A DNA stretch of 32,000 bases from Nanobdella aerobiophila (GTDB lineage Archaea; Nanobdellota; Nanobdellia; Nanobdellales; Nanobdellaceae). The stretch lies in contig NZ_AP019769.1 in NCBI RefSeq assembly GCF_023169545.1, positions 180,001 to 212,000 of the forward strand. The letters run 5' to 3'. Made by a program: the position numbers and the translations under genes. Below are positions 4,703-30,554 of the stretch, in pieces. The number at the start of each line of letters is the position of its first letter. Within the stretch, counting starts at the first letter, position 1. Below the pieces are notes generated by a model. It did no database searches. It was not told the DNA's origin and worked only from the letters and a program-made list of their open reading frames with translations.

Positions 4703-4715
4703 TTTAATACTTTTA

Positions 4716-8692: not shown

Positions 8693-9135
8693 TCTCTTTA
8701 GGAAGGAAGTATATAAATGCAGAGAATCATATATTGGGTAGATTATCTTCTTATGTAGCGAAATATTTATTGGAAGGGTATGAAGTATATATTATAAATT
8801 CAGAAAAGGTAATAGTAACCGGAAAATGGAAAAATCTAGTTCAATATTGGAATCATAAGATCAATGAAAGAGGAGACTGGATAAAAGGTCCATTTTATCC
8901 AAAGAGGTCAGATAAGATATTGCGCAGAGTAATAGCAGGTATGCTTCCTAGAAATAATAGGGGCTCTAATGCATTAAAGAGATTAAAAGTATATCTGGGA
9001 GTACCTGATGAACTAAAGAATATAAAATTTGAAGTCATAGATGATTGTATAATATATAATAGGTTAAATACAGGAAGAATAAAAGAATATTATACTCTAT
9101 CGGCGATAGCAAGACAGGTTGGTGGAAAGCTTTAA
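8689..9135 (+). CDS. rpl13: 50S ribosomal protein L13
   Basis: INAENHILGRLSSYVAKYLLEGYEVYIINSEKVIVTG, MLPRNNRGSNALKRLKVY. 4-bp overlap with rpl18e. Confidence 0.85.
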   Translation: MISLGRKYINAENHILGRLSSYVAKYLLEGYEVYIINSEKVIVTGKWKNLVQYWNHKINERGDWIKGPFYPKRSDKILRRVIAGMLPRNNRGSNALKRLKVYLGVPDELKNIKFEVIDDCIIYNRLNTGRIKEYYTLSAIARQVGGKL

Positions 9136-9160
9136 AATATTTTTAGAATAAAGATATAAA

Positions 9161-9559
9161 ATGATTGTAATATCATCTGGTAAGAAAAAACTTGCAATTG
9201 CGAGGGCGTATATTAGAGAAGGAAGTGGAGTCATAAGGATAAATTCTAAGTTATTACAATTTTATGAACCAACTTTGGCAAGATTAAGAATATTAGAACC
9301 AGTATTATTAGCTGGACCTGAATATATATCTAAGGTAAATATTAAGGTTAGGGTAACTGGTGGTGGATATATGGGCAAAGCAGAAGCTGCTAGAATAGCA
9401 ATTGCAAAGGGATTGGTAAAATATTTTGATGATGATAAATTAAAACTATTGTTTAATCAATATGATCCAAGATTATTAAAGTCAGATCCTAGGAAAAAGG
9501 AACAAAGAAAATCTCCTACTTCAAAAGCAAGAAAACATTATACAACGGCATATAGATAA
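9161..9559 (+). CDS. rps9: 30S ribosomal protein S9
   Basis: GKKKLAIARAYIREGSGVIRIN, VTGGGYMGKAEAARIAIAKGLV, LLKSDPRKKE and a basic C-terminus ending in R. Follows L13 as in the conserved archaeal cluster. Confidence 0.9.
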   Translation: MIVISSGKKKLAIARAYIREGSGVIRINSKLLQFYEPTLARLRILEPVLLAGPEYISKVNIKVRVTGGGYMGKAEAARIAIAKGLVKYFDDDKLKLLFNQYDPRLLKSDPRKKEQRKSPTSKARKHYTTAYR

Positions 9560-17200: not shown

Positions 17201-17804
17201 ACATAATTTCGATACAGTCTGGAATTATCCACTGGAGTTATATTATAATGGATTAGAGTATAGGCCAGCAGATTCTATAAAAATACAAATATATAAAGAT
17301 AGATTAAATAAGGAAGATGAATATACTAATTGGGGTTTTATGCATGATATAGATTCTATAAGTAATGAAGGGAATACAGAATCTGCGTATAAGTTTTTGG
17401 GAGAGATGTTAGAAAAATTAAATTTTGAATTGAAATTATCAAGATTATTAAGATCTGTTGATCCTGTTGTAGTTGCAAATTTAGTAATAAATCTACATTT
17501 TGCTAGAGATATAAAAGGAAATCTAAGAAAATTTTCTGAGCAAGAGTTTAGATGCATAAAATGTAATACTAAGTATAGAAGAATCCCGCTATCTGGGAAA
17601 TGCATAAGATGTAATGGAAAAATTGTAATGACTGTTACATATGGCAGCGTTATAAAATATTTAGAGCCTAGTTTATGGCTATCTGAAAATTTACATTTAG
17701 ATGAATATACATCTTCAAGTCTTAGGGCTTTAAAAGAGAAGATTGATGAAACATTTGGAAATGTATCTAAGGAAAGGAAATTAAAAGATTTCTTTAATAT
17801 ATAA
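14244..17804 (+). CDS. polC: DNA polymerase II (PolD) large subunit DP2
   Basis: 1186 aa with no intein. Conserved DP2 blocks YYAGPVRSAGGTPQA, RGGAMLVLAEGI, AGRPIFSLPS..GGFRLRYGKSRTNG, GLRMGRPEKA, LAPHTSAGVVGRIIGF, NCDGDEGG (catalytic double-psi barrel acidic motif), GGMMDAPL. Zn fingers CPNC..CIFC and CIKCN..CIRCNG. Confidence 0.95.
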   Translation: MNDMDQYFSDIRKKTLEAYELAKKARLLKLDSTDDVEIPISEDMSERIVNLLSNIDPIIKEINLPEKIREIEKQYKALSFATILKIADYVSEQIYNKTKDKLRAIDLGIRSAFTYHTLGVVAASTEGIIKVISKKRRDNKEYLSIYYAGPVRSAGGTPQAFSVVVADLLRKKFGYEKWDPDNDEVQRYVIEVYDYKRMAHLQYTPKKEELEFVLQNLPIEINGEATLESEVSGYKDLPRIETNFIRGGAMLVLAEGICQKAGKIWKKLEPVAKDFNLEDWKWLSDYKKLQERIYSSSSDSGEKIKPNSKYLAQLTAGRPIFSLPSAKGGFRLRYGKSRTNGHEASSIHPAAAALTYNFLAWGTQIAVERPGKASAVTFSDTIEPPVVKLKDGSVKKIYSEKIAKELIDKNLVEKILFLGDILFTYGDFLDNGHILVPVGYCEEWWVLEFEKNAKEKLKDFEVVFDMLKPRKMFEIKNLDKLSDYLNIDKSKLEGYIRDPLRIKPDLIDSLKISLLLDVPLHPLYTYFWKDISADDIIYLLNYIKDNSKIDIEKIKIGDKEVNIARRIEINYDENVKRILEEILIEHNLENNKIIINYPDSAAFYLQVGYINDIPSKGAENNGYEIISRVSVLKIRDKVGTYIGLRMGRPEKARIRELTGSIVVLFPVGKEGGRMRNLMESRNYGKILADLKLYYCPNCKIYVPYRKCIFCKSDTKLLNTEDNKTHKVYNIDIGKYIEAALKNLNMDSSQVPKIIKGPEGLSSKDKEPERLEKGILRAKYGVFVFRDGTTRFDAIEVPITYFKPKDLLFTPIEKLKELGYTRDIYGNPLENEEQILELKPQDIILPIVGPYKKAGKIKMDGFLRSLINTTRFLDEELERLYNLPKYYNVDRPEDLLGHLLIVLAPHTSAGVVGRIIGFSKTQALLMHPLMHAGIRRNCDGDEGGFILLLDALINFSKNYLPEKRGGMMDAPLTITLKLKGMEVDDEVHNFDTVWNYPLELYYNGLEYRPADSIKIQIYKDRLNKEDEYTNWGFMHDIDSISNEGNTESAYKFLGEMLEKLNFELKLSRLLRSVDPVVVANLVINLHFARDIKGNLRKFSEQEFRCIKCNTKYRRIPLSGKCIRCNGKIVMTVTYGSVIKYLEPSLWLSENLHLDEYTSSSLRALKEKIDETFGNVSKERKLKDFFNI

Positions 17805-18535
17805 TGTTTATTTTATCTGGTATTGGTAATAATATAGATGAAATTCCAATTGGTTTGATTAATAATATAAAAGATGCGGATCTAGTATTTTTAGAATATT
17901 ATACAAACTTTGTAGATAATAGTATATTAAAATATCTATTAAATATAAATAGTAATATAAAATTGATTGATAGAGATTTTGTGGAGTATAAATTAGAAAA
18001 TATAATATTGAATAATAAAGATAAGAAAATAATATTAATAGTGTCGGGAAATCCTCTATTTGCTACTACACATTTTTATTTTATTGAATTATGTAAGAAA
18101 AATAATATAAATTTTAAAATAATAAATTCAGCTTCTGTATTTGATGAAGTTGGTAAAACAGGTTTGTTCTTATATAAATTTGGTAGAATAATATCTGTTC
18201 CATTTCATGAATCTACAGATTTTTATGATAATATAATAAATAACTATAGAAATAATTTACATACATTATTATTATTGGATTTAGATCCAAAGAATAATAT
18301 TTATCTAGATCATAAAGAAGCTATAAGGAAGATAATGAATTTAGATAAGAATAGAGTGTTTAATGAAGATTTTAAGTTAATAGTATGTTCCAAATTGAAC
18401 AGGGACGGTGAAAAAATATATTATGACTCTATAAGAAATCTAATGAATATGAATATAGAGCCACCTTTATGTATAATAATACCGTCAAATTTAAATAAAA
18501 TAGAAGAGGATTTTTTATCATGTATGATATCTTAA
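17804..18535 (+). CDS. dphB: diphthine synthase (DphB/Dph5, tetrapyrrole-methylase fold)
   Basis: MFILSGIGNN...ADLVFLEYYTN, VSGNPLFATTH, LYKFGRIISVPF, HTLLLLDL are typical diphthine synthase blocks. The ATG shares one base with the polD stop (TAATG). Confidence 0.85.
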   Translation: MFILSGIGNNIDEIPIGLINNIKDADLVFLEYYTNFVDNSILKYLLNINSNIKLIDRDFVEYKLENIILNNKDKKIILIVSGNPLFATTHFYFIELCKKNNINFKIINSASVFDEVGKTGLFLYKFGRIISVPFHESTDFYDNIINNYRNNLHTLLLLDLDPKNNIYLDHKEAIRKIMNLDKNRVFNEDFKLIVCSKLNRDGEKIYYDSIRNLMNMNIEPPLCIIIPSNLNKIEEDFLSCMIS

Positions 18536-19320
18536 TATCGAAGGTAAAAGATAACCCATATATACTGTTTTTTTTAACATTATTCTCTATAATATTTGCA
18601 ACATTAATATCTATTAAGAGCGGATCGGAGGGTGGCATATTAATCATAGCGATATCGTTAGTTCCATTAGTTCAAGTATATAATAAATTAATAGAAAAAG
18701 ATGAAAAATTGTCAGAAAAAATATTATCTAATCATAATATATTTTATAGATACAAGGACTATATACTTGCTTCATTTATAATATTTTTTGGATCGGTTAT
18801 CGGGTTTTATATAGGCTATTTAATAAATTATAATTTATTTTTTCCGCAATTACAAGCCATAGAAAATATAAAAATGCATGTGCTGAGTTTATCTTATGGG
18901 CAAGCAATAAATACTAATAATTTCTTTAGTTATATATTATTTAACAATATGGAGGTACTATTATTATTTTTTTCATTTTCTATATTATTTGGTGCAGGTG
19001 CAATATATCTATTATTATGGAACTCATCAATTATAGGTGTTTTTCTTGGTTTAAAGGCATTTAATTTAAATACATCAAATTTATTATATAAATATATATT
19101 ATATCCTGTCTATAGTTTAATATTAATACTACCTCACGGTTTGCTAGAATTTCTAGCTTATTTTTTAGCTGCTTTATCTGGTAATATATTATCTATAGCA
19201 TTTGTAAAAGGATTAGATAAAGAAATATTAGAAAAAATATTATCCGATTCTTTAGCATTATTTGTATTATCCATACTATTCTTATTTACTGCGGCATTTA
19301 TAGAAGCTTATATTATTTAA
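18520..19320 (+). CDS. SpoIIM-like (DUF95) polytopic membrane protein
   Basis: Multiple TM segments. FNNMEVLLLFFSFSILFGAGAIYLLLWNSSIIG and LILPHGLLEFLAYFLAALSG match the SpoIIM/DUF95 N...G.G...N..G and PHG..E signature. 16-bp overlap with dphB. Confidence 0.55.
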   Translation: MYDILISKVKDNPYILFFLTLFSIIFATLISIKSGSEGGILIIAISLVPLVQVYNKLIEKDEKLSEKILSNHNIFYRYKDYILASFIIFFGSVIGFYIGYLINYNLFFPQLQAIENIKMHVLSLSYGQAINTNNFFSYILFNNMEVLLLFFSFSILFGAGAIYLLLWNSSIIGVFLGLKAFNLNTSNLLYKYILYPVYSLILILPHGLLEFLAYFLAALSGNILSIAFVKGLDKEILEKILSDSLALFVLSILFLFTAAFIEAYII

Positions 19321-19335
19321 TTACAATTTTTTTAT

Positions 19336-19587
19336 ATGTATGAATCATTTGAGTATATAGAAGAAGGTATAATATACTGTAAGGTAAAATCTATATTAAA
19401 AGATAAGGTAATATTTGATATAAATAGTAAGGAGTATTCTTTCGACAAGACAATTGATATGAACTATTTAAAAGAAGGAGATTATGTTAGATTTTATATA
19501 AAAGACAATAAAATAATCTACATAGAGACTATATCAAAGGAATTTTATGATAGGATGTATTATATAATCAGTCAATTATATAACTAA
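19336..19587 (+). CDS. hypothetical small protein (83 aa)
   Basis: ORF with a normal-looking composition for this genome and no recognised motif. Its 3' end overlaps the convergent archaeosortase-like gene by 12 bp. Confidence 0.4.
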   Translation: MYESFEYIEEGIIYCKVKSILKDKVIFDINSKEYSFDKTIDMNYLKEGDYVRFYIKDNKIIYIETISKEFYDRMYYIISQLYN

Positions 19588-20136
19588 TCCTTTTTTATAT
19601 TTTTTTATAAATATAATCCAAAATATTACTAAGAACATAGTTGTAAATATTTCCCATAATACATTATGTACAAAATATGGGTTTAAATTAAATCTTACAT
19701 ATAGAAAAAATACAGACCATAATCTAAATATATTTAGAATATATAATATTAAGCTTGAATAGATAAAATACATAATCTTATTTCTTATATTTAATATAGG
19801 TGTAGAAAATATCATTGCAAATATAGCAAATACAGATTTAAATCCTGTACATTCTTGATCTATTATAAAATTTACAGAGCCTACATGTAATGTATTGGCA
19901 GTTAATATATATTCTATATTTGATAATGTTAATATATATCCTATAAATTTAGAATAAGATAATAAAAATGATTGTGGTAATATAATATAATAATAGCTAA
20001 ATAAAGATAAAGGTATAGAATAAATTAACATATTTAGAAAAAATATAGCAATTATTAATTCTTTTCTTATCATCTTACTTTTCATAGATTCTTCAATTAT
20101 ATTAGGAAAATATTTTTTTATTATATATTCAAACAT
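19576..20136 (-). CDS. exosortase/archaeosortase-family protein (minimal, 186 aa)
   Basis: Polytopic membrane protein carrying the family's catalytic-triad context. Cys in IIDQECTGFKSVFAIF, Arg in LNIFRLWSVFF, His in YFVHNVLWEIF, in the canonical order and spacing (C..about 40 aa..R..about 20 aa..H). Confidence 0.65.
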   Translation of the reverse strand: MFEYIIKKYFPNIIEESMKSKMIRKELIIAIFFLNMLIYSIPLSLFSYYYIILPQSFLLSYSKFIGYILTLSNIEYILTANTLHVGSVNFIIDQECTGFKSVFAIFAMIFSTPILNIRNKIMYFIYSSLILYILNIFRLWSVFFLYVRFNLNPYFVHNVLWEIFTTMFLVIFWIIFIKKYKKGLVI

Positions 20137-20611
20137 GTTTTATTTTAACTGCTAAACCATATTTAAAGTCTTTTATTTCCTTTGCCGATAGGAGTGTTTC
20201 ACCAATAGCCAATAATTTATCATATCTATTTACTATTAATACAATATCTCTGGATAATATATTTTCATCAATATTTACTATAAATTTTGAGAATACAGAT
20301 TTACCTTTTAATATGTAGTCTTCTGCCTCTTCGTTTACAACAACTCTATACTTTGGAAATTCTAAAAATTTTTGCAAAATCTCACCGCCATATTTTGTTA
20401 TTATTATATATCCTGTACTTGGTTCTATAGATCCAAATAGCTTATTATTGATAAATATTCTTTTTATTCTATGGGTTTTTCTACTCTTTTCTAATTGTAT
20501 ATTTTCATAGCTTTCTAGAATCTTATCTCCAACTTTACTGCCAAATTGGTAATTTAATATAGATTTAATTATTAATGAATCCATACCAGTATAATACGAA
20601 CTTTGCTGCAA
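20129..20611 (-). CDS. stand-alone PUA-domain protein resembling the C-terminal (C2 + PUA) half of archaeosine tRNA-guanine transglycosylase
   Basis: ILNYQFGSKVGDKIL matches the (A)DYQFG.g.g..lf block of the ArcTGT C-terminal region. C-terminal PUA pattern VVVNEEAEDYILKGKSVFSKFIVNIDENILSRDIVLIVNRYDKLLAIGETLLSAKEI..GLAVKIKHV. The start may be Met-10 (20584), which would reduce the 47-bp overlap with the upstream gene. Confidence 0.75.
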   Translation of the reverse strand: MQQSSYYTGMDSLIIKSILNYQFGSKVGDKILESYENIQLEKSRKTHRIKRIFINNKLFGSIEPSTGYIIITKYGGEILQKFLEFPKYRVVVNEEAEDYILKGKSVFSKFIVNIDENILSRDIVLIVNRYDKLLAIGETLLSAKEIKDFKYGLAVKIKHV

Positions 20612-21149
20612 TTTCTTCGCCTATTATAGAATTATTATTTTCTAATAATATTGTATTATTTTCTGGGTATAAATATATTCCATAACTTTTATTTGTTGGT
20701 ACGAGATATATTAATAAAGTATCATTTAATGGTATATAATAATATTTATACTGATTATTATAGTATTGGTATAATAATATTGTATTATTTTCTATAGAAT
20801 TATTTTCTAAAAAGAATGTACAACCATTACTATATCCAAAACAAGTTGGTATAATATTTGGGATCTTCAAATCTATATATAATAGCTCTGCATTATAATA
20901 TCCAGTTAAATTAGGATTGAATAATAATAAATATATAGATTTATTATTAATTATACTATATATCGATATATTTGGATATATATTTATATTAGATAGCTGA
21001 TCTATAGAATAAGGACTAGCAATAGTTATATTATCTTTATTATAGTAATATATATTTTTGTGATTATAATATGATTTATATAATATATATATTATAAAGA
21101 TTAGAAATGCAATAAAAATAATCATACTTATTATCTTGTCCTTTTTCAT
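20565..21149 (-). CDS. N-terminally membrane-anchored, Tyr/Asn-rich putative surface protein with about 10 N-x-S/T sequons
   Basis: MKKDKIISMIIFIAFLIFIIYILY is a signal-anchor. The ectodomain has NIT, NIS, NKS, NLT, NNS, NNT, NDT, NKS, NNT, NNS sequons and two Cys. First gene of a three-gene overlapping unit with the PUA protein and the archaeosortase-like protein. No family recognised. Confidence 0.5.
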   Translation of the reverse strand: MKKDKIISMIIFIAFLIFIIYILYKSYYNHKNIYYYNKDNITIASPYSIDQLSNINIYPNISIYSIINNKSIYLLLFNPNLTGYYNAELLYIDLKIPNIIPTCFGYSNGCTFFLENNSIENNTILLYQYYNNQYKYYYIPLNDTLLIYLVPTNKSYGIYLYPENNTILLENNNSIIGEEIAAKFVLYWYGFINN

Positions 21150-22488: not shown

Positions 22489-24147
22489 ATGGCAGAAGAT
22501 AGAAAAGGACTATATCCTATGGTATTATCTCCAGAAAAATATGCAAGAACAATTGGTAGAGAAGCAATGAGATCAAATATTATGGCGGCTATTATTGTAT
22601 CAGAAATATTAAAGACATCTCTGGGCCCAAGAGGAATGGATAAAATGTTAGTAGATGAGCTAGGAGATGTCACTGTTACGAATGATGGAGCTACAATATT
22701 AGATCAGATGCATGTCGAACATCCTGCAGCAAAGTTAATTATCGAAATAGCAAAAACTCAAGATAAGGAAGTAGGTGATGGTACGAAGAGATCTACAGTA
22801 CTGGCAGGAGAGTTATTAAAAAGAGCAGATGAATTATTAGATAAGAATGTCCATCCAACAATATTAATGGAGGGTTATAAAAAAGCAGAATTATTGGCTG
22901 AAAAGATAGTGTCAAATTTAGCAGAAAAAATTTCTATAGAAGATGAGGGATCTCTTATAAAAATTGCTAAGTCTGCTCTTTCATCAAAATTAGCGTCCAT
23001 ATATTCTGATGTGCTGGGAAAAATAATTGTAGATGCTGTAAAGAGGGTTACAAGCGTTGTAGATCTTGGTAATGGAAATAAGAAAATAATCGTAGATTTG
23101 GATTCATTAAAAATTGAGAAAAAGGTAGGTGGTGGAGTTGAGGAGACAGAATTAATAGAAGGAATAGTAATAGATAAAGAAAGAATACATGGTGAAATGC
23201 CAAAAATAGTTTCAAAGGCAAAAATTGCGTTAATAGGTGATGCCATAGAAATAAAAGAGACAGAAACGGATGCAAGAATAAATATAAGTACTCCAGATCA
23301 GTTAGAACAATTCTTGAATAAAGAAAAAGAGATGTTGAAAAAGATGGTAGATAAGATAAAACAGATAGGTGCAAATGTTGTATTAGTACAGAAAGGTGTG
23401 GATGACTTAGCAGCATATTATTTTGCAAAATATGGTATATTAGCAGTAAGAAGAGTTAAGAAATCAGATATGGAAAAATTAGCAAAAGCAACAGGTGCAA
23501 AGATAATAAATTCAATAGATGAACTATCTCAATCTGATTTAGGTGAAGCAGAATTAGTAGAAGAAAGGAAAGTAGCAGATGAAAATATGTTATTTGTAAC
23601 AGGATGTAAAAATCCAAAAGCAGTCACAATATTAATAAGGGCAGGTTCTGAACATGTTGCAGATGAGATAGAGAGATCCATAAATGATGCAGTTAGAGAT
23701 ATAGCAACAGTTATAAGATACGGAAAAATTATAGCTGGTGGTGGTGCGATAGAAATGGAATTATCAGAGGCAATAAGAAAAGAAGCAAAGAAAGAATCAT
23801 CTAAAGTTCAGATGGCTATGTTGGCATTTGCAGATGCATTAGAGGCTATACCAGCTGCATTGGCAGAAAATGCGGGTATGGATACAATTGAAGCAATGAC
23901 AGAATTAAGGGCAAGTCATGAGCAGGGTAAAAAATGGTACGGTATAGATGCATCAGAGGGTAAAGTTACAGATATGTGGGCTAAAAATGTAATAGAACCA
24001 GCAAGTATAACATTACAAGCGATAAAATCAGCTACAGAAGCAGCAATAATGATATTGAAGATAGATGATGTGATTGCAGCAGTAGGTAAATCTACAGGAG
24101 CGGGATCAGGAGCAGGAAGCGAGCCATCAGAAGGCTTAGAAGAATAG
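22489..24147 (+). CDS. ths: thermosome subunit (group II chaperonin)
   Basis: LGPRGMDKMLVD, VTNDGATIL, HPAAKL, QDKEVGDGT, AGGGAIEMEL, VIEPASI and a Gly/Ala/Ser-rich C-terminal tail. 552 aa. Confidence 0.95.
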   Translation: MAEDRKGLYPMVLSPEKYARTIGREAMRSNIMAAIIVSEILKTSLGPRGMDKMLVDELGDVTVTNDGATILDQMHVEHPAAKLIIEIAKTQDKEVGDGTKRSTVLAGELLKRADELLDKNVHPTILMEGYKKAELLAEKIVSNLAEKISIEDEGSLIKIAKSALSSKLASIYSDVLGKIIVDAVKRVTSVVDLGNGNKKIIVDLDSLKIEKKVGGGVEETELIEGIVIDKERIHGEMPKIVSKAKIALIGDAIEIKETETDARINISTPDQLEQFLNKEKEMLKKMVDKIKQIGANVVLVQKGVDDLAAYYFAKYGILAVRRVKKSDMEKLAKATGAKIINSIDELSQSDLGEAELVEERKVADENMLFVTGCKNPKAVTILIRAGSEHVADEIERSINDAVRDIATVIRYGKIIAGGGAIEMELSEAIRKEAKKESSKVQMAMLAFADALEAIPAALAENAGMDTIEAMTELRASHEQGKKWYGIDASEGKVTDMWAKNVIEPASITLQAIKSATEAAIMILKIDDVIAAVGKSTGAGSGAGSEPSEGLEE

Positions 24148-24191: not shown

Positions 24192-24725
24192 ATGCCAGAA
24201 TATGAAATTATACCTCAAGATCCAATAGATAAATTAACACAAGAAATAGAGAATTTAAAAACGGATTTAAGGGAGTTGAAGGGACAACTAAAAGATAATA
24301 TTGAAAATATAAAAAGAGAACTCTCTCTACCAAATGAAAATAATCCATTATTAAGAAAGGAAGTTAATTATTCTCAAAATTTTTCTGTGGATATATCATT
24401 TTACAAGGAGATTGTAAATTCATTAATTAAAAGTAATGTGGATTTACAGGCTAAAATATCTGAATTGGTAGTAGTTTCAAATAATTTGTATAGAGAAATA
24501 AAGAATCTGCTAGATATATTTAAAGAGGCGGCAATTTCTAGAAAAGAGGCCAAGAATGATAATAATTTGAATAATGTAGATATATTAAAAAGATTAGAAA
24601 ATTTAGAAAAAGCAAATTTGAAAATAGCAGAACTGTTAGATAGCTTTAAAAAATATATGGATAATTCAAAAGATAATAATGTAAAACCAGTAACAAATAA
24701 TAATCCATTATATAGAAAGATATAA
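24192..24725 (+). CDS. coiled-coil protein (177 aa), first gene of the pilus-like cluster
   Basis: Heptad-like stretches LTQEIENLKTDLRELKGQLKDNIENIKREL and ILKRLENLEKANLKIAELLDSFKKY. No TM segment and no recognised family. Confidence 0.5.
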   Translation: MPEYEIIPQDPIDKLTQEIENLKTDLRELKGQLKDNIENIKRELSLPNENNPLLRKEVNYSQNFSVDISFYKEIVNSLIKSNVDLQAKISELVVVSNNLYREIKNLLDIFKEAAISRKEAKNDNNLNNVDILKRLENLEKANLKIAELLDSFKKYMDNSKDNNVKPVTNNNPLYRKI

Positions 24726-24749
24726 AAACATTAGATGTAAATATATCTT

Positions 24750-25580
24750 ATGAAAAAAGGCCAATCTAATTTAGTGAGTTATCTTTTACTAGGTTTAATT
24801 ATAGTAGGTCTGTCCGTTGGTATTTATGAGTGGGGTATCCCAGTTATACAAAAATCTCAGTTAAAGACTTCAATAAGTGGTATACAGGCTTCATTAACTA
24901 CATTGGCTAGTACTATACAAGATGTGGCGGAAAGTAAAGGTAGTCAGGTGGTATCAATATCTTTGCCTTCTGGACCATTGAATATAAATTACAATGATAT
25001 ACAATATTCATTTCAATCTCCAGAAATATACTACAATCCATCTGTACCTGCAATACCAATAAATTATAATATATTCATACCTTGTACTGTAAATAATACA
25101 TTGACTATAAATGGCGGAGTAGTTAATTTATGTGGTTTACCAGGACTAGAGGCATATGCAAATAGTACAAATATAGTATTAACAGATATAAATAATAATA
25201 CAATAATCCTGCCATTGGAAAATATAAATAACTTAATTACAGAAGAATATGTATTTAATGTTAAGGTTAGTAATAATCAGGTAGATTTTATACCAGAATA
25301 CAATACTGGTGTAGCAAACTCCCAGTATTATCCCGCCTGTTTATTAACTGCTGTTCAATTGGGTAAGGAGATTGAGTATCAGATAGAGTGTAGACCAATG
25401 TATAATCCACAAAATGGTCAGTGTACATGGATTAATATAGTTCCGGCAGGGCAGACAGGGACTACTGCTTCTGGAACTGTAAATATAAATCTACAATATA
25501 ATGGTATAAATGTAGAGAATGTAAATTCTACAATATGTAATCAATTAATCTTATATAATATAGAAGCTTCTATATCTTAA
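24750..25580 (+). CDS. class-III-signal-peptide (archaeal type IV pilin-like) secreted protein, 276 aa, 6 Cys
   Basis: N-terminus MKKGQS-NLVSYLLLGLIIVGLSVGIY: short basic leader, Gly then Gln, then one hydrophobic helix, as in archaeal prepilins (Gln at +1 recalls DUF361-type pilins). The rest is Ser/Thr/Asn/Gly/Pro/Gln-rich with 6 Cys, very unlike the Lys/Glu/Ile-rich cytoplasmic proteins here. Confidence 0.55.
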   Translation: MKKGQSNLVSYLLLGLIIVGLSVGIYEWGIPVIQKSQLKTSISGIQASLTTLASTIQDVAESKGSQVVSISLPSGPLNINYNDIQYSFQSPEIYYNPSVPAIPINYNIFIPCTVNNTLTINGGVVNLCGLPGLEAYANSTNIVLTDINNNTIILPLENINNLITEEYVFNVKVSNNQVDFIPEYNTGVANSQYYPACLLTAVQLGKEIEYQIECRPMYNPQNGQCTWINIVPAGQTGTTASGTVNINLQYNGINVENVNSTICNQLILYNIEASIS

Positions 25581-25972
25581 TGGTAGAGAATGCATTTGAA
25601 ATAACTTTAATTACTTTAATACTATTTTTTACTTCCATTATAATAGTTACTCTTTTTAGAGATATAACCAATGTAAATAATTATGATGAATTTACTTTAA
25701 ATTATATAGGTAATAATATATATTTGTGTGTTAATCTTGCTTATCTATATAACTTATCTAGTATATACTGTAATCCATCTAGTAATTATAATTTTTTTGT
25801 GTCTTCTACAGGAAAAAATCTTTATGTTCAATATTCTAATATAGAAAAAATATATAATTTATATCAAGGCTATTCGTACTCTCCTTTATATGGAGAGAGT
25901 GAGGACTCTTTTTATATAATATACAATAATAAGACATCTATAGTCGATAGAGGATATTATATAGAATCATAA
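25580..25972 (+). CDS. small protein with N-terminal hydrophobic helix (possible minor pilin / FlaF-G-like accessory), 130 aa
   Basis: MVENAFEITLITLILFFTSIIIVTLF followed by a Tyr/Asn/Ser-rich domain with 2 Cys. The ATG shares one base with the preceding stop (TAATG), implying co-expression. Confidence 0.4.
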   Translation: MVENAFEITLITLILFFTSIIIVTLFRDITNVNNYDEFTLNYIGNNIYLCVNLAYLYNLSSIYCNPSSNYNFFVSSTGKNLYVQYSNIEKIYNLYQGYSYSPLYGESEDSFYIIYNNKTSIVDRGYYIES

Positions 25973-26006
25973 ATATTTATATTTTTCAAGATTTCTTTTA
26001 TCTTGT

Positions 26007-27806
26007 ATGGATATTGATGAATTTATTGATTCTGTACTTGATACTGTAAAGAAAAAAATTGAATTAAAAAATAAATTAAATCAAGGAGGATTTAGAATCG
26101 AAAAAATAAATACCAATATAGCTGGTAGTTCGCAAAATAGTAATCAAATAATTCCTATATTACAAACATATCCATATAAACCAAAAAAATTCAAAAAGAA
26201 AGCTAAAAAATTAAATAAAGATATAAATTTATTGAGTATTCCAGTAGCAGGTCAGAGAAAAATAACAGATAAGGATAAATTAAAATTTTTTATAGATTTA
26301 TACGGAGTAAATAATGAGGAAAATGAATATAGATACCCACTAACAAAAATGAGAGTCCTTAATAAGGATTTTATATTCTCTTATGCTGATATTTCTATAG
26401 ATCAAAATTTAAATGAATTAGTGTATAATGTTGTTGAAGTACCAATAACTGTACAAGAAAAAAATATAATAGACTATGTTATAGATAAATTAATTAAAAG
26501 AATTGAAATACCAGAGAATAGGGAAAATGATTTTGATAGGATGAAGGATTATATAGTTGAGGAATCGATTAATATATTAAAAGAAAAGGGGGTAAAGATA
26601 ACTAATCAAAGATTACCATATATATTATATTATATTATCAGAGATACAATTGGTTATGGTATAATAGATCCTCTCATGAGAGATCCATATATAGAGGATA
26701 TATCATGTAATGGTATTGATATACCAATATTTATTTTCCATAGAAATCCATTGATCGGTGAGATTAAAACAAACATAAAATTTAATTCTGATATAGAACT
26801 AGATAATTTTGTCATAAAGTTATCGGTAAGAACAGGAAGAATGATATCTATATCAAATCCACTATTAGATGCAGCACTACCAGATGGTTCTAGACTCCAA
26901 ATTACTTTTGGTAAAGATATATCTAGAAAAGGTTCATCATTTACAATAAGAAAGTTTACAGAAGATCCATTTACGCCTGTAGATTTATTATTATATGGTA
27001 CAGCAGATACAAATATGTTAGCATATTTATGGACATTAATAGAAGAAGGAAGATCTTTGTTAATATCGGGAGGTACAGCAACTGGTAAAACTTCTTTTTT
27101 AAATGCAGTTTCCTTATTTATTAAACCAGGTAAAAAGATAATATCTATAGAGGATACTGCAGAATTAAGATTACCCCACTCTAACTGGTTACAAGAGGTA
27201 GCAAGGCCAGGATATGGTCCGAATAGGTATGGAGAGGTCAGTATGTTCGATTTATTAAAAGCTGCATTAAGACAAAGGCCGGATTATATAATTGTTGGTG
27301 AGGTTAGAGGTGAAGAGGCATATATATTGTTCCAAGCGATGGCTACAGGTCACGCAGGTTTAAGTACAATTCACGCAGAGAGTATAGAAGCATTGACTGA
27401 TAGGCTATTATCTCCTCCAATAAATTTACCTCCCTCTCTATTAGAGATATTGGATGATGTAATATTTTTGAAAAGAATAAGATATCAGGGTAGATATGTA
27501 AGAAGAGTAGATAAGATATATGAAATTTTAGGTTATGACAAAGAAAAGAAGGATATAAATAGAGTAGTATCATATTATTGGGACCCGAAAGATGATTCAT
27601 ATATTCCTCAAAATAGTAATGTATTAAATAAGATAGCAGAATTAAGAAACTGGTCTAAAAGCGATATAGAAACTAACTTTAAATTTAAGATTAGAGTATT
27701 GGAATATATGTTTGAGAATAATGTGAGAGATTATAAAAAAGTAGGAGAAATATTAGATATGTATTATAATGATACAGATAAGTTGATTAGATTAGTAGGT
27801 TTTTAG
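26007..27806 (+). CDS. FlaI/PilB/GspE-superfamily secretion ATPase (archaeal type IV filament assembly ATPase)
   Basis: DPYIEDISCNGIDIPIFIFHRN (archaeal FlaI-like block), Walker A ISGGTATGKTSFLNA, Asp box, Walker B PDYIIVGEVRGEEA, His box ATGHAGLSTIHA. 599 aa with a Lys-rich N-terminal extension of roughly 100 aa (KPKKFKKKAKKLNK). Confidence 0.85.
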   Translation: MDIDEFIDSVLDTVKKKIELKNKLNQGGFRIEKINTNIAGSSQNSNQIIPILQTYPYKPKKFKKKAKKLNKDINLLSIPVAGQRKITDKDKLKFFIDLYGVNNEENEYRYPLTKMRVLNKDFIFSYADISIDQNLNELVYNVVEVPITVQEKNIIDYVIDKLIKRIEIPENRENDFDRMKDYIVEESINILKEKGVKITNQRLPYILYYIIRDTIGYGIIDPLMRDPYIEDISCNGIDIPIFIFHRNPLIGEIKTNIKFNSDIELDNFVIKLSVRTGRMISISNPLLDAALPDGSRLQITFGKDISRKGSSFTIRKFTEDPFTPVDLLLYGTADTNMLAYLWTLIEEGRSLLISGGTATGKTSFLNAVSLFIKPGKKIISIEDTAELRLPHSNWLQEVARPGYGPNRYGEVSMFDLLKAALRQRPDYIIVGEVRGEEAYILFQAMATGHAGLSTIHAESIEALTDRLLSPPINLPPSLLEILDDVIFLKRIRYQGRYVRRVDKIYEILGYDKEKKDINRVVSYYWDPKDDSYIPQNSNVLNKIAELRNWSKSDIETNFKFKIRVLEYMFENNVRDYKKVGEILDMYYNDTDKLIRLVGF

Positions 27807-28433
27807 TTCTATAATCTCCAAGGGTTTCTTATTGTAAAATTTTATTATATATGTTTTATCTTTATCTATTTCATATTTTTTATCTATATATAGTATTGTA
27901 AAATTATCTGTTAAGACTATATATTTATCATCATCTTTTTTTAATAATTTTATATATCTTATAGATAGATAATATTTGTTTTTTATTTCTATATCTTCTT
28001 CAATCTTTTTTATATTGTATATATTATTTATATATAGTGTTATGAAATAGTTATTTAATATTACCGGTCTTTTTACTAATATACTATTATTTTCTTTTAA
28101 TATATATGATATCTCTTTCCATCTTGGATCTTTTAGTAATAATTTCACTAGTCCTGTTTCATCTCCGACTTCCAAAATAATCTTTTCTTGATCTTTATAC
28201 AATATTTTATTTATTTTTAATTTAATTTGATTAATTTTAATATTTTGGTATATATTTTTTAATTTTATATTATATATATCTTCTAAAGATAATCCGTAAT
28301 CTTTTAATATTAATAATATCGCGGTGTCTTCATCAATTAAGTTATTATATTGTTTATATTTTTCTTTAATCAAGTCATCTAGTTTATTTTTTGAAATATT
28401 TAAAATAGATAAAATATTATTTTTATCTATCAT
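27792..28433 (-). CDS. RPA/SSB-like OB-fold single-stranded-DNA-binding protein (tentative)
   Basis: N-terminal ISKNKLDDLIKEKYKQYNNLIDEDTAILLILKDYGLSL resembles the conserved N-terminus of archaeal RPA/SSB-like proteins (..eeie.li.ek...ggLiseegAa.lvA.elGv). It is followed by an OB-like block KINKILYKDQEKIILEVGDETGLVKLLLKD (cf. ..DETG.ir.tlW.). Its 3' end overlaps the ATPase gene by 15 bp. Confidence 0.45.
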   Translation of the reverse strand: MIDKNNILSILNISKNKLDDLIKEKYKQYNNLIDEDTAILLILKDYGLSLEDIYNIKLKNIYQNIKINQIKLKINKILYKDQEKIILEVGDETGLVKLLLKDPRWKEISYILKENNSILVKRPVILNNYFITLYINNIYNIKKIEEDIEIKNKYYLSIRYIKLLKKDDDKYIVLTDNFTILYIDKKYEIDKDKTYIIKFYNKKPLEIIELKTY

Positions 28434-28521
28434 AAATATAAATTATCATTTAATATTAAAAATATTTGAGATTTAGCAATCTCCAAAAAATATTTTGTTT
28501 GATTTTATTAAAAATGATATT

Positions 28522-28905
28522 CTAGCCAGTTGCTGAGCATAAATTAGAGCCCTGGCCATCTAGTTGGCATCCGCCGCTATTACATACTATTGTTGATCCA
28601 TTACTTAAGGTAAATGATTGTGGATATGTGTTGTAGCAAGAATAAGAACAATATGAAGAACTTGAGAATAGATCTATTTGTGTATTTGGATCTGTACTAG
28701 ATTCTATTTCAGATAGAACAGTTCCGGCGTACTCTGCACATTGGGTAGAATTTATTTGTTGAGTAGTTGGACCTGTACTACTTATACCAGTTGTAAATCT
28801 ACCTAATCCGCCAGTAAATATTAATATTAAGAATACAAGTACCAATATAGCAATTATTGCTAGGACTATTACATTTAATGGTAGACCTTGCGATCTGTTT
28901 TTCAT
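28522..28905 (-). CDS. small class-III-signal-peptide pilin-like protein, Cys-rich (127 aa, 6 Cys)
   Basis: MKNRSQG-LPLNVIVLAIIAILVLVFLILIF: basic leader, Ser-Gln-Gly, one long hydrophobic helix. Then a Ser/Thr/Gly/Gln-rich globular part with QCAEY, YCSYSCYN, IVCNSGGCQLD, NLCSATG. Confidence 0.55.
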   Translation of the reverse strand: MKNRSQGLPLNVIVLAIIAILVLVFLILIFTGGLGRFTTGISSTGPTTQQINSTQCAEYAGTVLSEIESSTDPNTQIDLFSSSSYCSYSCYNTYPQSFTLSNGSTIVCNSGGCQLDGQGSNLCSATG

Positions 28906-28941: not shown

Positions 28942-29421
28942 ATGAACTCTCTGGTTATGAAGATATCTAAAATATATTTAAGATTAATAGTTCATGATTG
29001 GGATGATAGAAATATTATAGATAAATTAAAGAATGTATTTATAAGTGGTATTGATAGAAAATATATCAAAGAAACCTATAGTAAAGACAAAGGACTTATA
29101 AGCAATAATTTGATTATTTATGAACTAACATTAACTAATAAAAATGCCATAGATATATTATTTTCGAATTTGATATATCACGGCCTGAATATTGATGATA
29201 TCATAAATAATTCTAATTTTGACGAAAATTGTAATTTATATTTAAGGATAGACAAAGATTATATTAAAGATTATATAATAAGAATACGATATTCTGATAA
29301 TTCGATATTATTGAAGATAAGTTTTGATGATTATAATAAAAATAAGGATAAAATATATAATTTTATAAAAGAATATTTTGGATATATAAATAAAAAATTT
29401 TTAGATATTAATATTCAATGA
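28942..29421 (+). CDS. hypothetical protein, possibly DUF54/COG1325-like predicted RNA-binding protein
   Basis: RLIVHDWDDRNIIDKLKNVF resembles the v.vhaTEDeeKV..al.nlf start of that family, and NLYLRIDKDYIKDY resembles its lylRlDKQaa block. The match is weak and from memory only. 4-bp overlap with mre11. Confidence 0.35.
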   Translation: MNSLVMKISKIYLRLIVHDWDDRNIIDKLKNVFISGIDRKYIKETYSKDKGLISNNLIIYELTLTNKNAIDILFSNLIYHGLNIDDIINNSNFDENCNLYLRIDKDYIKDYIIRIRYSDNSILLKISFDDYNKNKDKIYNFIKEYFGYINKKFLDINIQ

Positions 29422-30554
29422 AATTTGTACATATATCAGATACGCATTTAGGTTGCCAAATACCAATTCAATATAATGAACTTAGAAAAAAAGATTTCTT
29501 AAAAACATTTAAAGAAGCAATTGAATTTTCTATAAATAATAAGGTTGATTTCATAATACATTCCGGTGACTTTTTTGATGATTATTTTAGATTCGACTCA
29601 AAATTTATAATAGAAGTATTGGATATTTTGATGAAATTAAAAAATAATAATATTCCTCTTATATTTATAAAAGGAAATCATGATGTAAAGGGTCATAGAC
29701 AAAATGTACTGGAGTTGTTTAAAAAACTGGATCTTATAAAAGAGGCAAATATAAGAGAACCTTATATAATTAAGGATGTTTATATATACGGAGTCTCAGA
29801 ACCATCTAATCTGGCTGGAGAACAATTAAATAAATATTATAGAGAATTATTTAGTAATATAAATCTTGAAAATAATGGTTTTAGGATATTCTTGTTCCAT
29901 GGCGCTGTAAATATGTTTCCAAATAATATATTAGAGGGTTATGGTAAGGAACCTAGAATATTGCCCTTGAATATATTTCCTAAGGCAGATTATTATGGAT
30001 TTGGACATTTCCATAAAAGTCATCTCGAGGTTCATGATGATATTATATTCTCATTGCCAGGTTCTACTGAGAGAACCTCTTTATCTAAAGATGAAGAAAA
30101 TATAAAGAAAGGATTTTATTACTATAGCGATAATATTGATTTTATTGAAGTTAATTCTAGACCTATATACATATATGAAGATATAATAAATAATGAAGAG
30201 GATTTAAATAGATTAAAAGATTATATTGGTAAAAGATCTAAAGAAACCTTGATTAAATTAAAGTTAAAATATAATAAAGATTTATATATAAGTATTAAAA
30301 ATTATATAGATAAATTGATTTCATCCGGATATTATATAATTGATGATCTATATTCTATGAATCAAGAATATAATATCATAAAAGATGAGAGTAATATAAA
30401 TGACTTATTTGATAATAATATATTTGTTAACAATAAAGAAGAATTATTGGAGTTATTTAATAATATAAAAAGTACATTTGAAGAATTTTATTCTAATAAA
30501 AGTAGCGATATAGATCGAATAAGAGATATATTATATAAAAATTTAATAAAATGA
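29418..30554 (+). CDS. mre11: Mre11 DNA double-strand-break repair nuclease
   Basis: Calcineurin-like phosphoesterase motifs I-VI: FVHISDTHLG, IIHSGDFFD, IKGNHD, LFHG, GFGHFH, and a later Ser/Thr-rich capping region. 378 aa. Confidence 0.9.
   Translation: MKFVHISDTHLGCQIPIQYNELRKKDFLKTFKEAIEFSINNKVDFIIHSGDFFDDYFRFDSKFIIEVLDILMKLKNNNIPLIFIKGNHDVKGHRQNVLELFKKLDLIKEANIREPYIIKDVYIYGVSEPSNLAGEQLNKYYRELFSNINLENNGFRIFLFHGAVNMFPNNILEGYGKEPRILPLNIFPKADYYGFGHFHKSHLEVHDDIIFSLPGSTERTSLSKDEENIKKGFYYYSDNIDFIEVNSRPIYIYEDIINNEEDLNRLKDYIGKRSKETLIKLKLKYNKDLYISIKNYIDKLISSGYYIIDDLYSMNQEYNIIKDESNINDLFDNNIFVNNKEELLELFNNIKSTFEEFYSNKSSDIDRIRDILYKNLIK

Follow-up and report, generated by a model that had tools for sequence, protein, structure and literature searches.

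The stretch of DNA analyzed here (32 kb, in the following called the window) belongs to Nanobdella aerobiophila MJ1, a tiny ectosymbiont, and an earlier reading of the letters alone (in the following called the sequence-only reading) had correctly taken it for a tiny symbiont-type genome. The proteins of the region match MJ1_0238 to MJ1_0243 exactly, and the five open reading frames previously reported for the module were all confirmed at their coordinates. Together with one neighbor gene, they are arranged in the window as follows.

24192..24725, + strand: MJ1_0238, coiled-coil protein of 177 aa, first gene of the locus
24750..25580, + strand: MJ1_0239, pilin-like protein of 276 aa
25580..25972, + strand: MJ1_0240, protein of 130 aa with an N-terminal hydrophobic helix
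26007..27806, + strand: MJ1_0241, secretion ATPase of 599 aa (Pfam T2SSE, E=4.7e-36)
27792..28433, − strand: MJ1_0242, soluble neighbor protein of 213 aa, convergent with the ATPase gene
28522..28905, − strand: MJ1_0243, Cys-rich pilin-like protein of 127 aa with six Cys

The start of MJ1_0240 overlaps the stop codon of MJ1_0239 by one base, and MJ1_0242 and MJ1_0241 overlap by 15 bp. The same gene order was found in the genomes of Nanopusillaceae and YN1 (12 distinct complete loci), and variant orders occur in Nanoclepta and other Nanobdellales. The module genes are under purifying selection, with dN/dS values of 0.12 for MJ1_0241, 0.15 for MJ1_0240, 0.16 for MJ1_0238, 0.21 for MJ1_0239 and 0.49 for MJ1_0243, the fastest-evolving member. 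Because the proteins match exactly, the gene order is kept in relatives and dN/dS lies between 0.12 and 0.49, these are real genes and not chance reading frames.

The ATPase MJ1_0241 possesses intact Walker A (GGTATGKT) and Walker B (DYIIVGEVRG) motifs. Its best match in the PDB is the GspE protein of A. fulgidus (2OAP, 393 bits), and FlaI (4II7) was matched with 303 bits. The protein reaches 24.2 bits on the PilB3_C model, under the cut-off of 27, and 429.5 bits on the NCBI FlaI equivalog model NF058587 versus a cut-off of 550; other pilus ATPases score 345–453 bits on the latter model and true FlaI 677.5. Judged by these similarities, MJ1_0241 belongs to the hexameric secretion ATPases, and among these to the archaeal FlaI/GspE2/PilB3 group (called “A-type” below). 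The Lys-rich N-terminal extension, which had been described as unusual, is real and ~90–130 residues long, but a comparable one is present in every DPANN ATPase examined of its clade, basic in most members and acidic in N. constans.

MJ1_0239 starts with a short leader (MKKG/Q), followed by a hydrophobic N-terminal helix and a Cys-containing all-beta domain, with a total of six Cys and four NxS/T glycosylation sequons. The AlphaFold2 model (33-sequence alignment; pLDDT 95.4, pTM 0.87) displays one 61-residue helix (residues 2–62) and then the all-beta domain, consistent with a pilin-like fold and with the earlier description of the protein as prepilin-like. A Foldseek search, as proposed by the sequence-only reading, yielded no PDB match with an E-value below 0.16, and the beta domain resembles no solved pilin. 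Relatives of MJ1_0239 are rare: we identified 32 among 1.84 billion representatives, nine of them full length. MJ1_0239 itself matches Pfam DUF7289 with 17 bits (E=0.0045), under the cut-off of 27 bits, and six of the 19 members of its family match this domain, the best with E=2.8e-25. On these profile matches, MJ1_0239 is probably a divergent relative of the DUF7289 proteins.

The second pilin-like protein, MJ1_0243, shows the leader MKNRS/QGLPLN, a strongly hydrophobic helix and four Cys that are invariant in its family; the positions M1, Q6, L8, L15, A16, I18, C56, Y85, C108 and C123 are invariant in alignment A2. Its gene lies two genes from the ATPase gene in the loci of Nanopusillaceae, YN1, Nanoclepta and L007 and is displaced by ~6 kb in L019; homologs were not detected in the L008, L009, L010 or N. 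equitans loci. MJ1_0239 and MJ1_0243 have a conserved [KR]-x/Q leader in common. The predicted processing sites lie directly before the conserved Gln (MKKG/QSNL and MKNRS/QGLP), one to two residues upstream of the positions given by the sequence-only reading. In orthologs, this Gln is frequently preceded by Leu, Asn or Thr, which is unusual for a class III signal peptidase site.

The family of MJ1_0240 was found only in Nanobdellales and near relatives, always directly 5′ of the ATPase gene. Its Glu7 is nearly invariant within the motif MxxNA-x-E-I-V-L-I-T-L (alignment A3). MJ1_0240 had no match in Pfam, NCBIfam or the PDB and no profile similarity to the family of the 276-aa protein; it may represent a minor pilin or a component of stator-like type. 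MJ1_0243 likewise matched no Pfam or PDB family, and neither protein has a detectable relationship to any known pilin. MJ1_0239, MJ1_0240 and MJ1_0243 fail TIGR02537, the curated model for the N-terminus of pilins, and gave no Pilin_N match, no Pfam threshold being reached by these window proteins. The profile searches suggested for the five proteins thus returned T2SSE for the ATPase and nothing above threshold for the pilin-like and coiled-coil proteins.

The first gene of the locus, MJ1_0238, encodes a protein without a transmembrane segment and with a conserved N-terminal motif, YE[IL][IVM]PxDP[ILV]xKL. Only sub-threshold coiled-coil matches were obtained in Pfam and NCBIfam. By phmmer, homologs were found to be the first gene also in the loci of other Nanobdellales and in L010, L006 and L028–L030, DPANN loci with an ATPase of the same clade; L011 has a co-located coiled-coil gene, tied to that of L006 by BLASTP. 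MJ1_0238 is a candidate cytoplasmic coiled-coil accessory protein. The coiled-coil and 130-aa proteins had been described as lacking a nameable family, and this holds for both, as well as for the 127-aa protein, none of which matches a curated family. An AT-rich, TATA-like stretch can be read in the upstream sequence, ~35 bp 5′ of the start of MJ1_0238.

Looking downstream of the ATPase gene, MJ1_0242 fills the place that platform genes have in other lineages. It lacks a transmembrane segment, as expected from its earlier description as a convergent gene for a soluble protein, and its matches to RPA-like proteins are weak (NCBIfam replication factor A, E=2.2e-6, far under the cut-off; Pfam DUF2240, E=0.0035; PDB 2kbn, E=0.017). 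Its position is conserved in Nanopusillaceae, YN1, Nanoclepta and L007; the convergent gene after the ATPase encodes PolB in L008 and L010 and RFC in N. equitans. MJ1_0242 is probably not part of the machine.

The absence of a platform gene behind the ATPase and of a prepilin peptidase was the central observation of the sequence-only reading, and both were confirmed: the 32-kb window contains no T2SSF-type and no A24-peptidase-type gene. In none of the 19 Nanobdellales genomes was a T2SSF detected in the 10 kb that flank the ATPase gene at each end (searched up to contig or window ends; the window itself covers 4.2 kb downstream). The position is occupied in most other archaea, where 62 of 71 ATPase loci contain a T2SSF gene at a distance of at most 1 kb. 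In two DPANN loci, L006 and L011, the ATPase gene is directly followed by two T2SSF genes, which start no more than 7 bp away from its end.

The 19 ATPases lacking a T2SSF neighbor form one clade, nested among DPANN ATPases with adjacent T2SSF (TadC) pairs. Because they form a single clade, the absence of the platform looks like a single ancestral loss. By BLASTP, the coiled-coil protein, the 276-aa protein and the ATPase have homologs in L010, L011 and the N. constans locus L006, where the gene order is identical. Judged by this homology, the module is the version of a DPANN-wide type IV filament locus that Nanobdellales possess, and not an isolated oddity. Two sister loci, L004 and L010, encode PilA-type pilins that pass TIGR02537, and phmmer found one in L008; such a pilin is absent from the window locus and the Nanopusillaceae loci.

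With the platform and the PilA-type pilin, two of four ancestral core components are missing from the locus, and it might be regarded as a pilus locus in decay that has lost its function as the genome shrank. The genes are, however, intact wherever they were detected, with dN/dS of 0.12–0.21, the ATPase motifs are preserved, and transcripts were reported for 735 of the 736 MJ1 coding sequences (Kato et al., bioRxiv 10.1101/2023.10.27.564410). We regard decay as very improbable.

The term “orphan” applied to the module holds for the locus but not for the genome, since N. aerobiophila MJ1 encodes two T2SSF proteins, of 459 and 272 aa, at another locus (L092; in the following called locus B), next to a partial paralogous ATPase. 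In Nanopusillus, the corresponding locus (L088) encodes a 501-aa ATPase, 61% identical to the partial one of L092, together with T2SSF proteins of 457 and 279 aa (Pfam T2SSF, E=1e-12 and 5.9e-14). Locus L094 of YN1 has the same content. No pilin-like reading frame was found near L088, L092 or L094. The window locus and locus B are complementary in content, and this complementarity makes a split system with one common platform the best reading.

Makarova 2016 described nanoarchaeal ATPases without findable pilins and proposed that pilins are common to duplicated ATPase/TadC loci. Their nanoarchaeal “clade 4F” ATPase/TadC locus without identifiable pilins, which we take to correspond to locus B, resembles the window locus in occurring in the same genomes and in being an incomplete type IV filament locus. 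In content it is the mirror image: it combines an ATPase with two T2SSF and lacks pilins, and the window locus combines an ATPase with pilin-like genes and lacks T2SSF. In other DPANN archaea, locus B is accompanied by pilins of its own; one such genome contains both loci in complete form (L042 and L045), each with a separate set of pilins and a platform.

Public records name MJ1_0241 FlaI, and the module could alternatively be part of an archaellum, with MJ1_0241 as the ArlI motor, a stand-alone ArlJ and archaellins encoded elsewhere, and MJ1_0239 and MJ1_0240 as archaellin-like or ArlF/G-like proteins. ArlB, H, I and J have been listed for MJ1, and MJ1_0239 was flagged as archaellin-like from structure prediction (Kato et al., bioRxiv 10.1101/2023.10.27.564410). 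Free N. aerobiophila cells are motile and carry 9-nm filaments (Gaisin 2024), archaellum genes are dispersed in Nanoarchaeota, and a Nanopusillus-like genome has a FlaJ without an identified adjoining ATPase. The window locus shares with archaella the homologous ATPase family, filament proteins composed of an N-terminal helix and a beta domain, and, loosely, a coiled-coil accessory gene reminiscent of ArlX or ArlCDE.

In contrast, the score of MJ1_0241 lies under the FlaI cut-off and within the pilus-ATPase range, in line with the earlier classification as a type IV filament-like module other than the archaellum. No ArlH, ArlJ, ArlF/G or archaellin gene was found in the window or the orthologous loci, and the orthologous DPANN loci encode PilA-type pilins and a pair of TadC proteins instead of ArlH, ArlJ or ArlB. 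N. equitans, which is not archaellated, retains an ortholog of the ATPase and an upstream pilin-like gene; the KaiC-like gene near this ortholog belongs to TIGR03877 and reaches 48 bits on the ArlH model (cut-off 215). Moreover, Nst1 has a separate clade-3 ATPase, and the MJ1 protein that bears the annotation “FlaJ” is really the 272-aa T2SSF of locus B. A role in the archaellum thus appears rather improbable.

A cognate platform might also exist elsewhere, either relocated in the genome or too diverged for the T2SSF models, and MJ1 may have T2SSF genes beyond those of locus B. Highly diverged TadC derivatives are possible in Thermoproteales (Makarova 2016), and Nanopusillus-like genomes encode four FlaJ/TadC homologs; a T2SSF of 669 aa next to an ATPase of 747 aa, and a FlaJ standing alone, occur in such genomes. 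According to the supplement of Jarett 2018, in which gene 2735310919 is the ortholog of MJ1_0241, three of the four homologs of the Nanopusillus-like reference genome adjoin other ATPases and the fourth, standing apart, is FlaJ. Near the locus, in the window as well as in related loci, we found no conserved polytopic membrane gene of unassigned family. Such a hidden platform is unlikely, though worth bearing in mind.

Alternatively, the machine could have been repurposed to work without any T2SSF platform, for example within the attachment organelle or as a motor for export or uptake, and the coiled-coil and membrane-anchored proteins would then replace the platform. The arrangement without a platform is stable across the order including N. 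equitans, with a highly conserved ATPase; the coiled-coil protein is specific to this locus type and always present; and Nanobdellales possess elaborate attachment organelles with filaments of unassigned proteins. Against this stand the T2SSF genes in the same genomes and the pilin-like N-termini retained by the accompanying proteins. To our knowledge, there is also no ATPase of the MJ1_0241 family that works independently of a platform, which speaks against repurposing, and we consider it quite unlikely.

We therefore somewhat favor the explanation that the Nanobdellales locus lost its platform and that the two half-loci form one machine. In the scheme of Makarova 2016, the window system would be placed as euryarchaeal-type “clade 2”, resembling Epd and PilB3; that study assigns to clade 2, by GI number, three ATPases of Nst1 and one of N. 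equitans. The ancestral locus would have consisted of the coiled-coil gene, one or more PilA-type pilins, a DUF7289-type pilin and the small pilin-like protein, followed by the ATPase, two TadC/T2SSF platform genes and further pilins with KGQ leaders. The two platform genes would have left the locus at the base of Nanobdellales, and the PilA-type pilin gene would be gone as well in Nanobdella and Nanopusillus, leaving the coiled-coil protein, MJ1_0239, MJ1_0240, the ATPase and MJ1_0243 in the window locus.

Under the split-system reading, the pilin-like proteins of the window locus would be inserted into the membrane and polymerized on the T2SSF platform of locus B, powered by one or both ATPases, with the coiled-coil protein possibly assisting or regulating the A-type ATPase from the cytoplasm. 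The result would be a surface filament for host contact, for which a second, unidentified appendage of N. aerobiophila, 15 nm wide and rough (Gaisin 2024), is a candidate. The analysis shows the gene content and homology, the loss of platform adjacency in a single clade, the complementarity of the two loci, selection on the genes and the predicted pilin-like fold of MJ1_0239; we infer the use of the platform in trans, as well as the formation of the filament and its function, including host attachment.

Among described systems, euryarchaeal-type pili come closest, for example the PilB3/PilC3 system of Haloferax volcanii with its PilA pilins (“clade 2” in Makarova 2016) and the related Epd of Methanococcus maripaludis, which possesses a pair of TadC genes (“system 1” in bioRxiv 10.64898/2026.04.22.720090). 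The window locus resembles them in an ATPase of the same broad group (2OAP as best match, PilB3_C below threshold), a large all-beta, probably DUF7289-type pilin upstream of it (DUF7289 being compared in place of arCOG02911, the signature large all-beta minor pilin, to which we infer it to be equivalent), PilA-type pilins in sister lineages, two TadC genes in DPANN orthologs, and a Gln right after the putative cleavage site, a trait shared with EppA substrates. It differs in the absence of TadC/T2SSF from the locus in all Nanobdellales genomes examined, the missing PilA-type pilin in Nanobdella and Nanopusillus, and the coiled-coil first gene and N-terminal ATPase extension, both specific to the DPANN clade. 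A further difference concerns the prepilin peptidase, a family reported as missing from two nanoarchaeal relatives (Makarova 2016); in the part of the gene table of Jarett 2018 that the analysis covered, no gene is annotated as an A24-type peptidase.

Should the two loci work together, their paralogous ATPases with one platform and one pilin set would recall the bacterial type IVa pilus with PilB and PilT on one PilC. The resemblance is no more than an analogy, and opposing activities of the two ATPases would be hypothetical. We know of no archaeal retraction ATPase. A more far-reaching and unlikely version is that reciprocal loss fused two ancestral filament systems, with the paralogous ATPases alternating on one T2SSF platform in the manner of bacterial PilB and PilT, and the pilins uncleaved or cut by a non-A24 peptidase. 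The resulting filament could be extended and retracted and might correspond to the 15-nm appendage or to the filaments of the attachment organelle. If true, these ATP-poor symbionts would possess a filament that is both extendable and retractable.

The window matches the genome of Nanobdella aerobiophila MJ1 (668,961 bp) exactly and has a G+C content of ~25%. The five proteins of interest and the gene between them are exact matches to MJ1_0238 to MJ1_0243, and each open reading frame lies precisely where the sequence-only reading had placed it:

24192–24725, + strand: MJ1_0238, coiled-coil protein of 177 aa without a transmembrane segment
24750–25580, + strand: MJ1_0239, pilin-like protein of 276 aa
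25580–25972, + strand: MJ1_0240, 130 aa, one base common to its start codon and the preceding stop codon
26007–27806, + strand: MJ1_0241, ATPase of 599 aa
27792–28433, − strand: MJ1_0242, soluble protein of 213 aa, convergent with the ATPase gene and overlapping it by 15 bp
28522–28905, − strand: MJ1_0243, Cys-rich pilin-like protein of 127 aa

An AT-rich, TATA-like stretch lies upstream of the first gene, encoding the coiled-coil protein. The gene order is thermosome, coiled-coil, 276-aa and 130-aa proteins, ATPase, the convergent 213-aa and 127-aa genes, Mre11 and Rad50. Nanopusillaceae, YN1 and Nst1 share this order, and variants of it occur in Nanoclepta and other Nanobdellales.

Genes for membrane platform proteins (T2SSF/TadC/FlaJ) normally lie next to the gene of a filament ATPase. 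We collected 80 loci around relatives of the window ATPase, one genome per species, and searched all their open reading frames with six T2SSF queries. As far as the contig or window extends, no T2SSF gene was found in the 10 kb to either side of the ATPase gene in any of 19 Nanobdellales genomes, which include the window, YN1, N. acidilobi, Nst1, Nanoclepta and N. equitans. Among other archaeal ATPases, a T2SSF gene was present within 1 kb in 62 of 71 evaluable loci, usually starting at most 20 bp from the ATPase stop codon, and several of the nine loci without an adjacent T2SSF gene represent the first gene of a tandem ATPase pair. The absence of a platform gene next to the ATPase, first noticed in the window, is thus borne out across the order (Fisher p = 5e-13, not to be read as 19 independent events, since the 19 share one clade). 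In a neighbour-joining tree, the Nanobdellales ATPases form this single clade, nested within DPANN ATPases of which each has a T2SSF pair next to it. Together with these DPANN relatives, the clade makes up the group called A-type in the following. A single ancestral loss of the platform genes, or their relocation, would account for this pattern.

That the locus is in decay, as the missing platform genes might be taken to mean, is highly improbable. The median dN/dS values among nine Nanopusillus genomes were 0.12 for the ATPase, 0.15 for the 130-aa, 0.16 for the coiled-coil and 0.21 for the 276-aa protein. The 127-aa protein yielded 0.49, a value to be expected of a surface protein that is exposed and diversifying. 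The genes MJ1_0238 to MJ1_0243 are real and maintained.

MJ1_0241 clearly belongs to the T2SSE family (E = 4.7e-36), and both its Walker motifs, A and B, are intact. Its public annotation as FlaI would suggest a role in the archaellum, which we consider quite improbable. On the NCBI FlaI equivalog model it reaches 429.5 bits against a cut-off of 550, where nine other archaeal pilus-type ATPases score 345–453 bits and genuine FlaI 677.5 bits. The closest solved relative is the Archaeoglobus GspE (2OAP, 393 bits), and FlaI (4II7) follows with 303 bits. N. equitans, from which the archaellum is absent, retains an orthologous ATPase (56% identity) with a pilin-like gene immediately upstream. Unlike an archaellum locus, the window locus contains no ArlH, ArlJ, ArlF/G or archaellin genes. 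These results agree with the initial view that the module is not the archaellum. A KaiC-like gene near the N. equitans orthologue was tested as ArlH and rejected. The Lys-rich N-terminal extension of the ATPase, originally described as unusual, turned out to be a trait of the clade: it occurs in every A-type member examined, is basic in most and acidic in Nanohalobium constans, and is absent from a paralogous ATPase clade.

For MJ1_0239, AlphaFold2 with a 33-sequence alignment built from representative-search matches yielded a model (pLDDT 95.4, pTM 0.87; single-sequence pLDDT only 38.9) with a single continuous helix at residues 2–62 followed by an all-beta domain. This predicted fold has the general pilin/archaellin architecture, and Kato et al. 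(bioRxiv 10.1101/2023.10.27.564410) came to the same archaellin-like view. The beta domain contains six Cys and four glycosylation sequons and had no PDB match by Foldseek. The family is tiny, with 32 matches among 1.84 billion representatives, nine of them full length and the remaining ones covering roughly the first 100 residues alone. Pfam DUF7289 was matched by six of 19 aligned members (best E = 2.8e-25), MJ1_0239 itself reaching only E = 0.0045.

In MJ1_0243, Gln6 and four Cys are invariant and the helix is very hydrophobic, and MJ1_0240 has a nearly invariant Glu7 within MxxNA-x-E-I-V-L. In profile comparisons neither family showed similarity to Pfam, PDB sequences or the 276-aa family; their status as candidate pilins therefore depends solely on their N-terminal features. 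The 276-aa and 127-aa families share a conserved [KR]-x-Gln element. In more distantly related DPANN proteins it reads K-A/S-Q, a canonical class III site with Gln at +1. EppA substrates likewise have Gln at +1. In Nanobdellales, the residue preceding the conserved Gln is often Leu, Thr, Asn or Ser. Such a putatively relaxed leader site would fit the reported absence of any A24 (class III) prepilin peptidase from two nanoarchaeal genomes. A FlaFind-style pattern matched none of the candidates and also missed the canonical PilA-type pilin of a sister locus, and is hence uninformative. In N. equitans, the gene directly upstream of the ATPase (8489–9556 of the fetched locus) encodes a protein of ~348 aa rich in Cys, Asn and Tyr. 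Its internal start MRSQFYIIAFTLLVL resembles the leader of the 276-aa family, but it was not detected by phmmer and aligned poorly, leaving homology to that family uncertain.

Distant DPANN archaea, represented by N. constans (L006) and two further loci (L010, L011), carry homologs of the ATPase and of the coiled-coil and 276-aa proteins, and the order of the genes is the same. The full DPANN locus comprises, in this order:

1: a coiled-coil protein bearing the motif YE[IV]VPxxPLxKL at its N-terminus
2: at least one PilA-type pilin (RxVSPIIATILL)
3: a relative of the 276-aa protein
4: a small protein with an N-terminal helix
5: the ATPase
6: a pair of T2SSF genes
7: additional pilin-like proteins whose leader reads K-G/A-Q

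In Nanoclepta and L010, the PilA-type genes pass the NCBI archaellin/type IV pilin N-terminal model. Nanoclepta minutus has two of them in tandem within the locus (L004, 7758–8704; 155 and 159 aa with identical N-terminal halves), whereas none was found at the window-type locus of N. aerobiophila or Nanopusillus. Families of the order thus differ in their candidate major subunit, and the missing small PilA-type subunit leaves the 276-aa protein as main candidate in the window. A thermosome gene lies immediately upstream of the pilus locus in Nanobdellales (window 22489–24147), in L010 (6408–8045) and in the nanohaloarchaeon N. constans (4706–6379). For genomes this divergent and rearranged, gene order is conserved to an unusual depth.

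A second locus was found elsewhere. In one Nanopusillus genome (L088), divergently transcribed T2SSF genes (457 and 279 aa) accompany the gene of a paralogous 501-aa ATPase that shares 42% identity with the window enzyme. Protein search identified the N. aerobiophila orthologue of the 279-aa protein, annotated ‘FlaJ’, and its contig (L092) carries T2SSF genes of 459 and 272 aa and the start of a paralogous ATPase 61% identical to the L088 enzyme. YN1 (L094) has the same locus, and no pilin-like open reading frames were found near any of the three. With the 459-aa and 272-aa T2SSF proteins encoded in N. aerobiophila, the description of the module as an orphan does not hold at the genome level. 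An ATPase repurposed to work independently of a platform, as the separation of the two might suggest, is rather unlikely beside maintained pilin-like genes and a platform in the same genome. The T2SSF proteins of the second locus are orthologous to platform genes of the same paralogous ATPase elsewhere in DPANN, not to A-type pairs. An A-type platform present but unseen, either relocated or too diverged for our queries, is unlikely.

In the gene-table entries available from Jarett et al. for a Nanopusillus-like genome, the orthologue of the window ATPase is gene 2735310919, nine genes from an archaeosortase, as in the window. Among these entries, a 497-aa ATPase adjoins two T2SSF genes, a 747-aa ATPase adjoins a 669-aa T2SSF gene, and the fourth FlaJ/TadC homologue is a stand-alone FlaJ; these entries agree with the two-locus picture. 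Makarova et al. described a nanoarchaeal ATPase clade without identifiable pilins and suggested pilin borrowing. The second locus directly adjoins a G+C-rich stretch without called protein genes, probably an rRNA gene (L088, 6800–9700; L094, 4000–7086). A MinD/ParA-type ATPase is encoded ~5.5 kb from its ATPase gene, reminiscent of the link between FleN/MinD and euryarchaeal pili noted by Makarova et al. In N. aerobiophila, a 498-aa cytochrome-b-like membrane protein (L092, 2872–4368; Pfam Cytochrom_B_N_2, weak NCBIfam matches) is encoded directly after the second T2SSF gene, a place where Nanopusillus and YN1 lack it.

Nanobdellales possess two half-systems of complementary content: the first combines pilin-like genes with an ATPase and lacks a platform, and the second combines an ATPase with a platform and lacks pilins. 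Relatives possess two complete systems. In other DPANN archaea the second locus comes with PilA-type and 276-like pilins of its own; one such locus, L042, shares a genome with the complete A-type locus L045. Read most simply, this complementarity would mean that the window's pilin-like proteins are assembled on the platform encoded at the second locus, driven by one or both ATPases. The coiled-coil protein may be a cytoplasmic partner of the A-type ATPase, and a reasonable product would be the second N. aerobiophila appendage, 15 nm wide and rough-surfaced (Gaisin 2024). We lean towards this combination of platform sharing, ATPase partner and appendage with modest confidence.

The ‘FlaJ’ of N. 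aerobiophila (contig DRR287719_38, 2003–2821) is the 272-aa T2SSF encoded at the second locus, the one without pilins, and its ‘FlaI’ (window 26007–27806) is the pilus-type ATPase. Published claims of ArlI and ArlJ in MJ1 may derive from such generic annotations.

Further window genes are as follows:

173–2380, − strand: Hef-like helicase-nuclease
9953–12346, + strand: CDC48
14244–17804, + strand: DNA polymerase D large subunit
18520–19320, + strand: SpoIIM-like membrane protein, 266 aa
19576–20136, − strand: exosortase/archaeosortase-family protein, 186 aa (TIGR04178, E = 2.2e-11)
20565–21149, − strand: conserved 194-aa protein without known family; it has a membrane anchor at the N-terminus and carries 10 NxS/T sequons
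29418–30554, + strand: Mre11, then Rad50 running off the window end

The archaeosortase and SpoIIM-like genes lie 4–6 kb upstream of the pilus module, syntenic throughout Nanopusillaceae and Nanoclepta. In the distant DPANN genome of L011, members of both families (1735–2376; 19044–19901) likewise lie no more than 8 kb from the orthologous pilus locus, which may indicate a surface-protein processing neighbourhood. The 194-aa protein is likely a glycosylated surface protein; the 3′ end of its gene overlaps the start of the same-strand downstream PUA-domain gene (20129–20611) by 47 bp. Orthologues lie at the same position in Nanopusillaceae and YN1, and a co-located 197-aa open reading frame of Nanoclepta was not detected by phmmer. 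The remainder of the window, including the Hef-like, CDC48, DNA polymerase D, Mre11 and Rad50 genes listed above, consists of ordinary archaeal housekeeping genes, and no tRNA genes were found in the 32 kb.

Earlier work had already provided the FlaI annotation and the archaellin-like model of MJ1_0239, and had reported nanoarchaeal ATPases that lack pilins as well as the absence of the peptidase. In the papers examined, among them a 2026 survey of archaeal type IV filament systems, we did not find stated the separation of ATPase and platform throughout the order with a single origin, the mirror-image content of the second locus, or the assignment of the MJ1 ‘FlaI’ and ‘FlaJ’ to pilus-type genes.

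Nanobdellales live attached to other archaea, and their appendages and attachment organelle have been imaged, but not the proteins that build them. Our analysis offers a concrete gene set for a candidate non-archaellar filament: MJ1_0238 to MJ1_0241, MJ1_0243 and the ATPase/T2SSF genes of the second locus. The FlaI/FlaJ annotations behind the inferred archaellum of N. aerobiophila mark pilus-type components instead. Type IV filament loci are usually held to have the pairing of ATPase and platform as their invariant core; here a whole lineage breaks this pairing, and search tools that require co-located core genes would miss or misclassify such systems. The finding would be of greater interest if both ATPases use one common platform. 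Together with the reported absence of a prepilin peptidase, it raises testable questions on how minimal a type IV filament machine can be.
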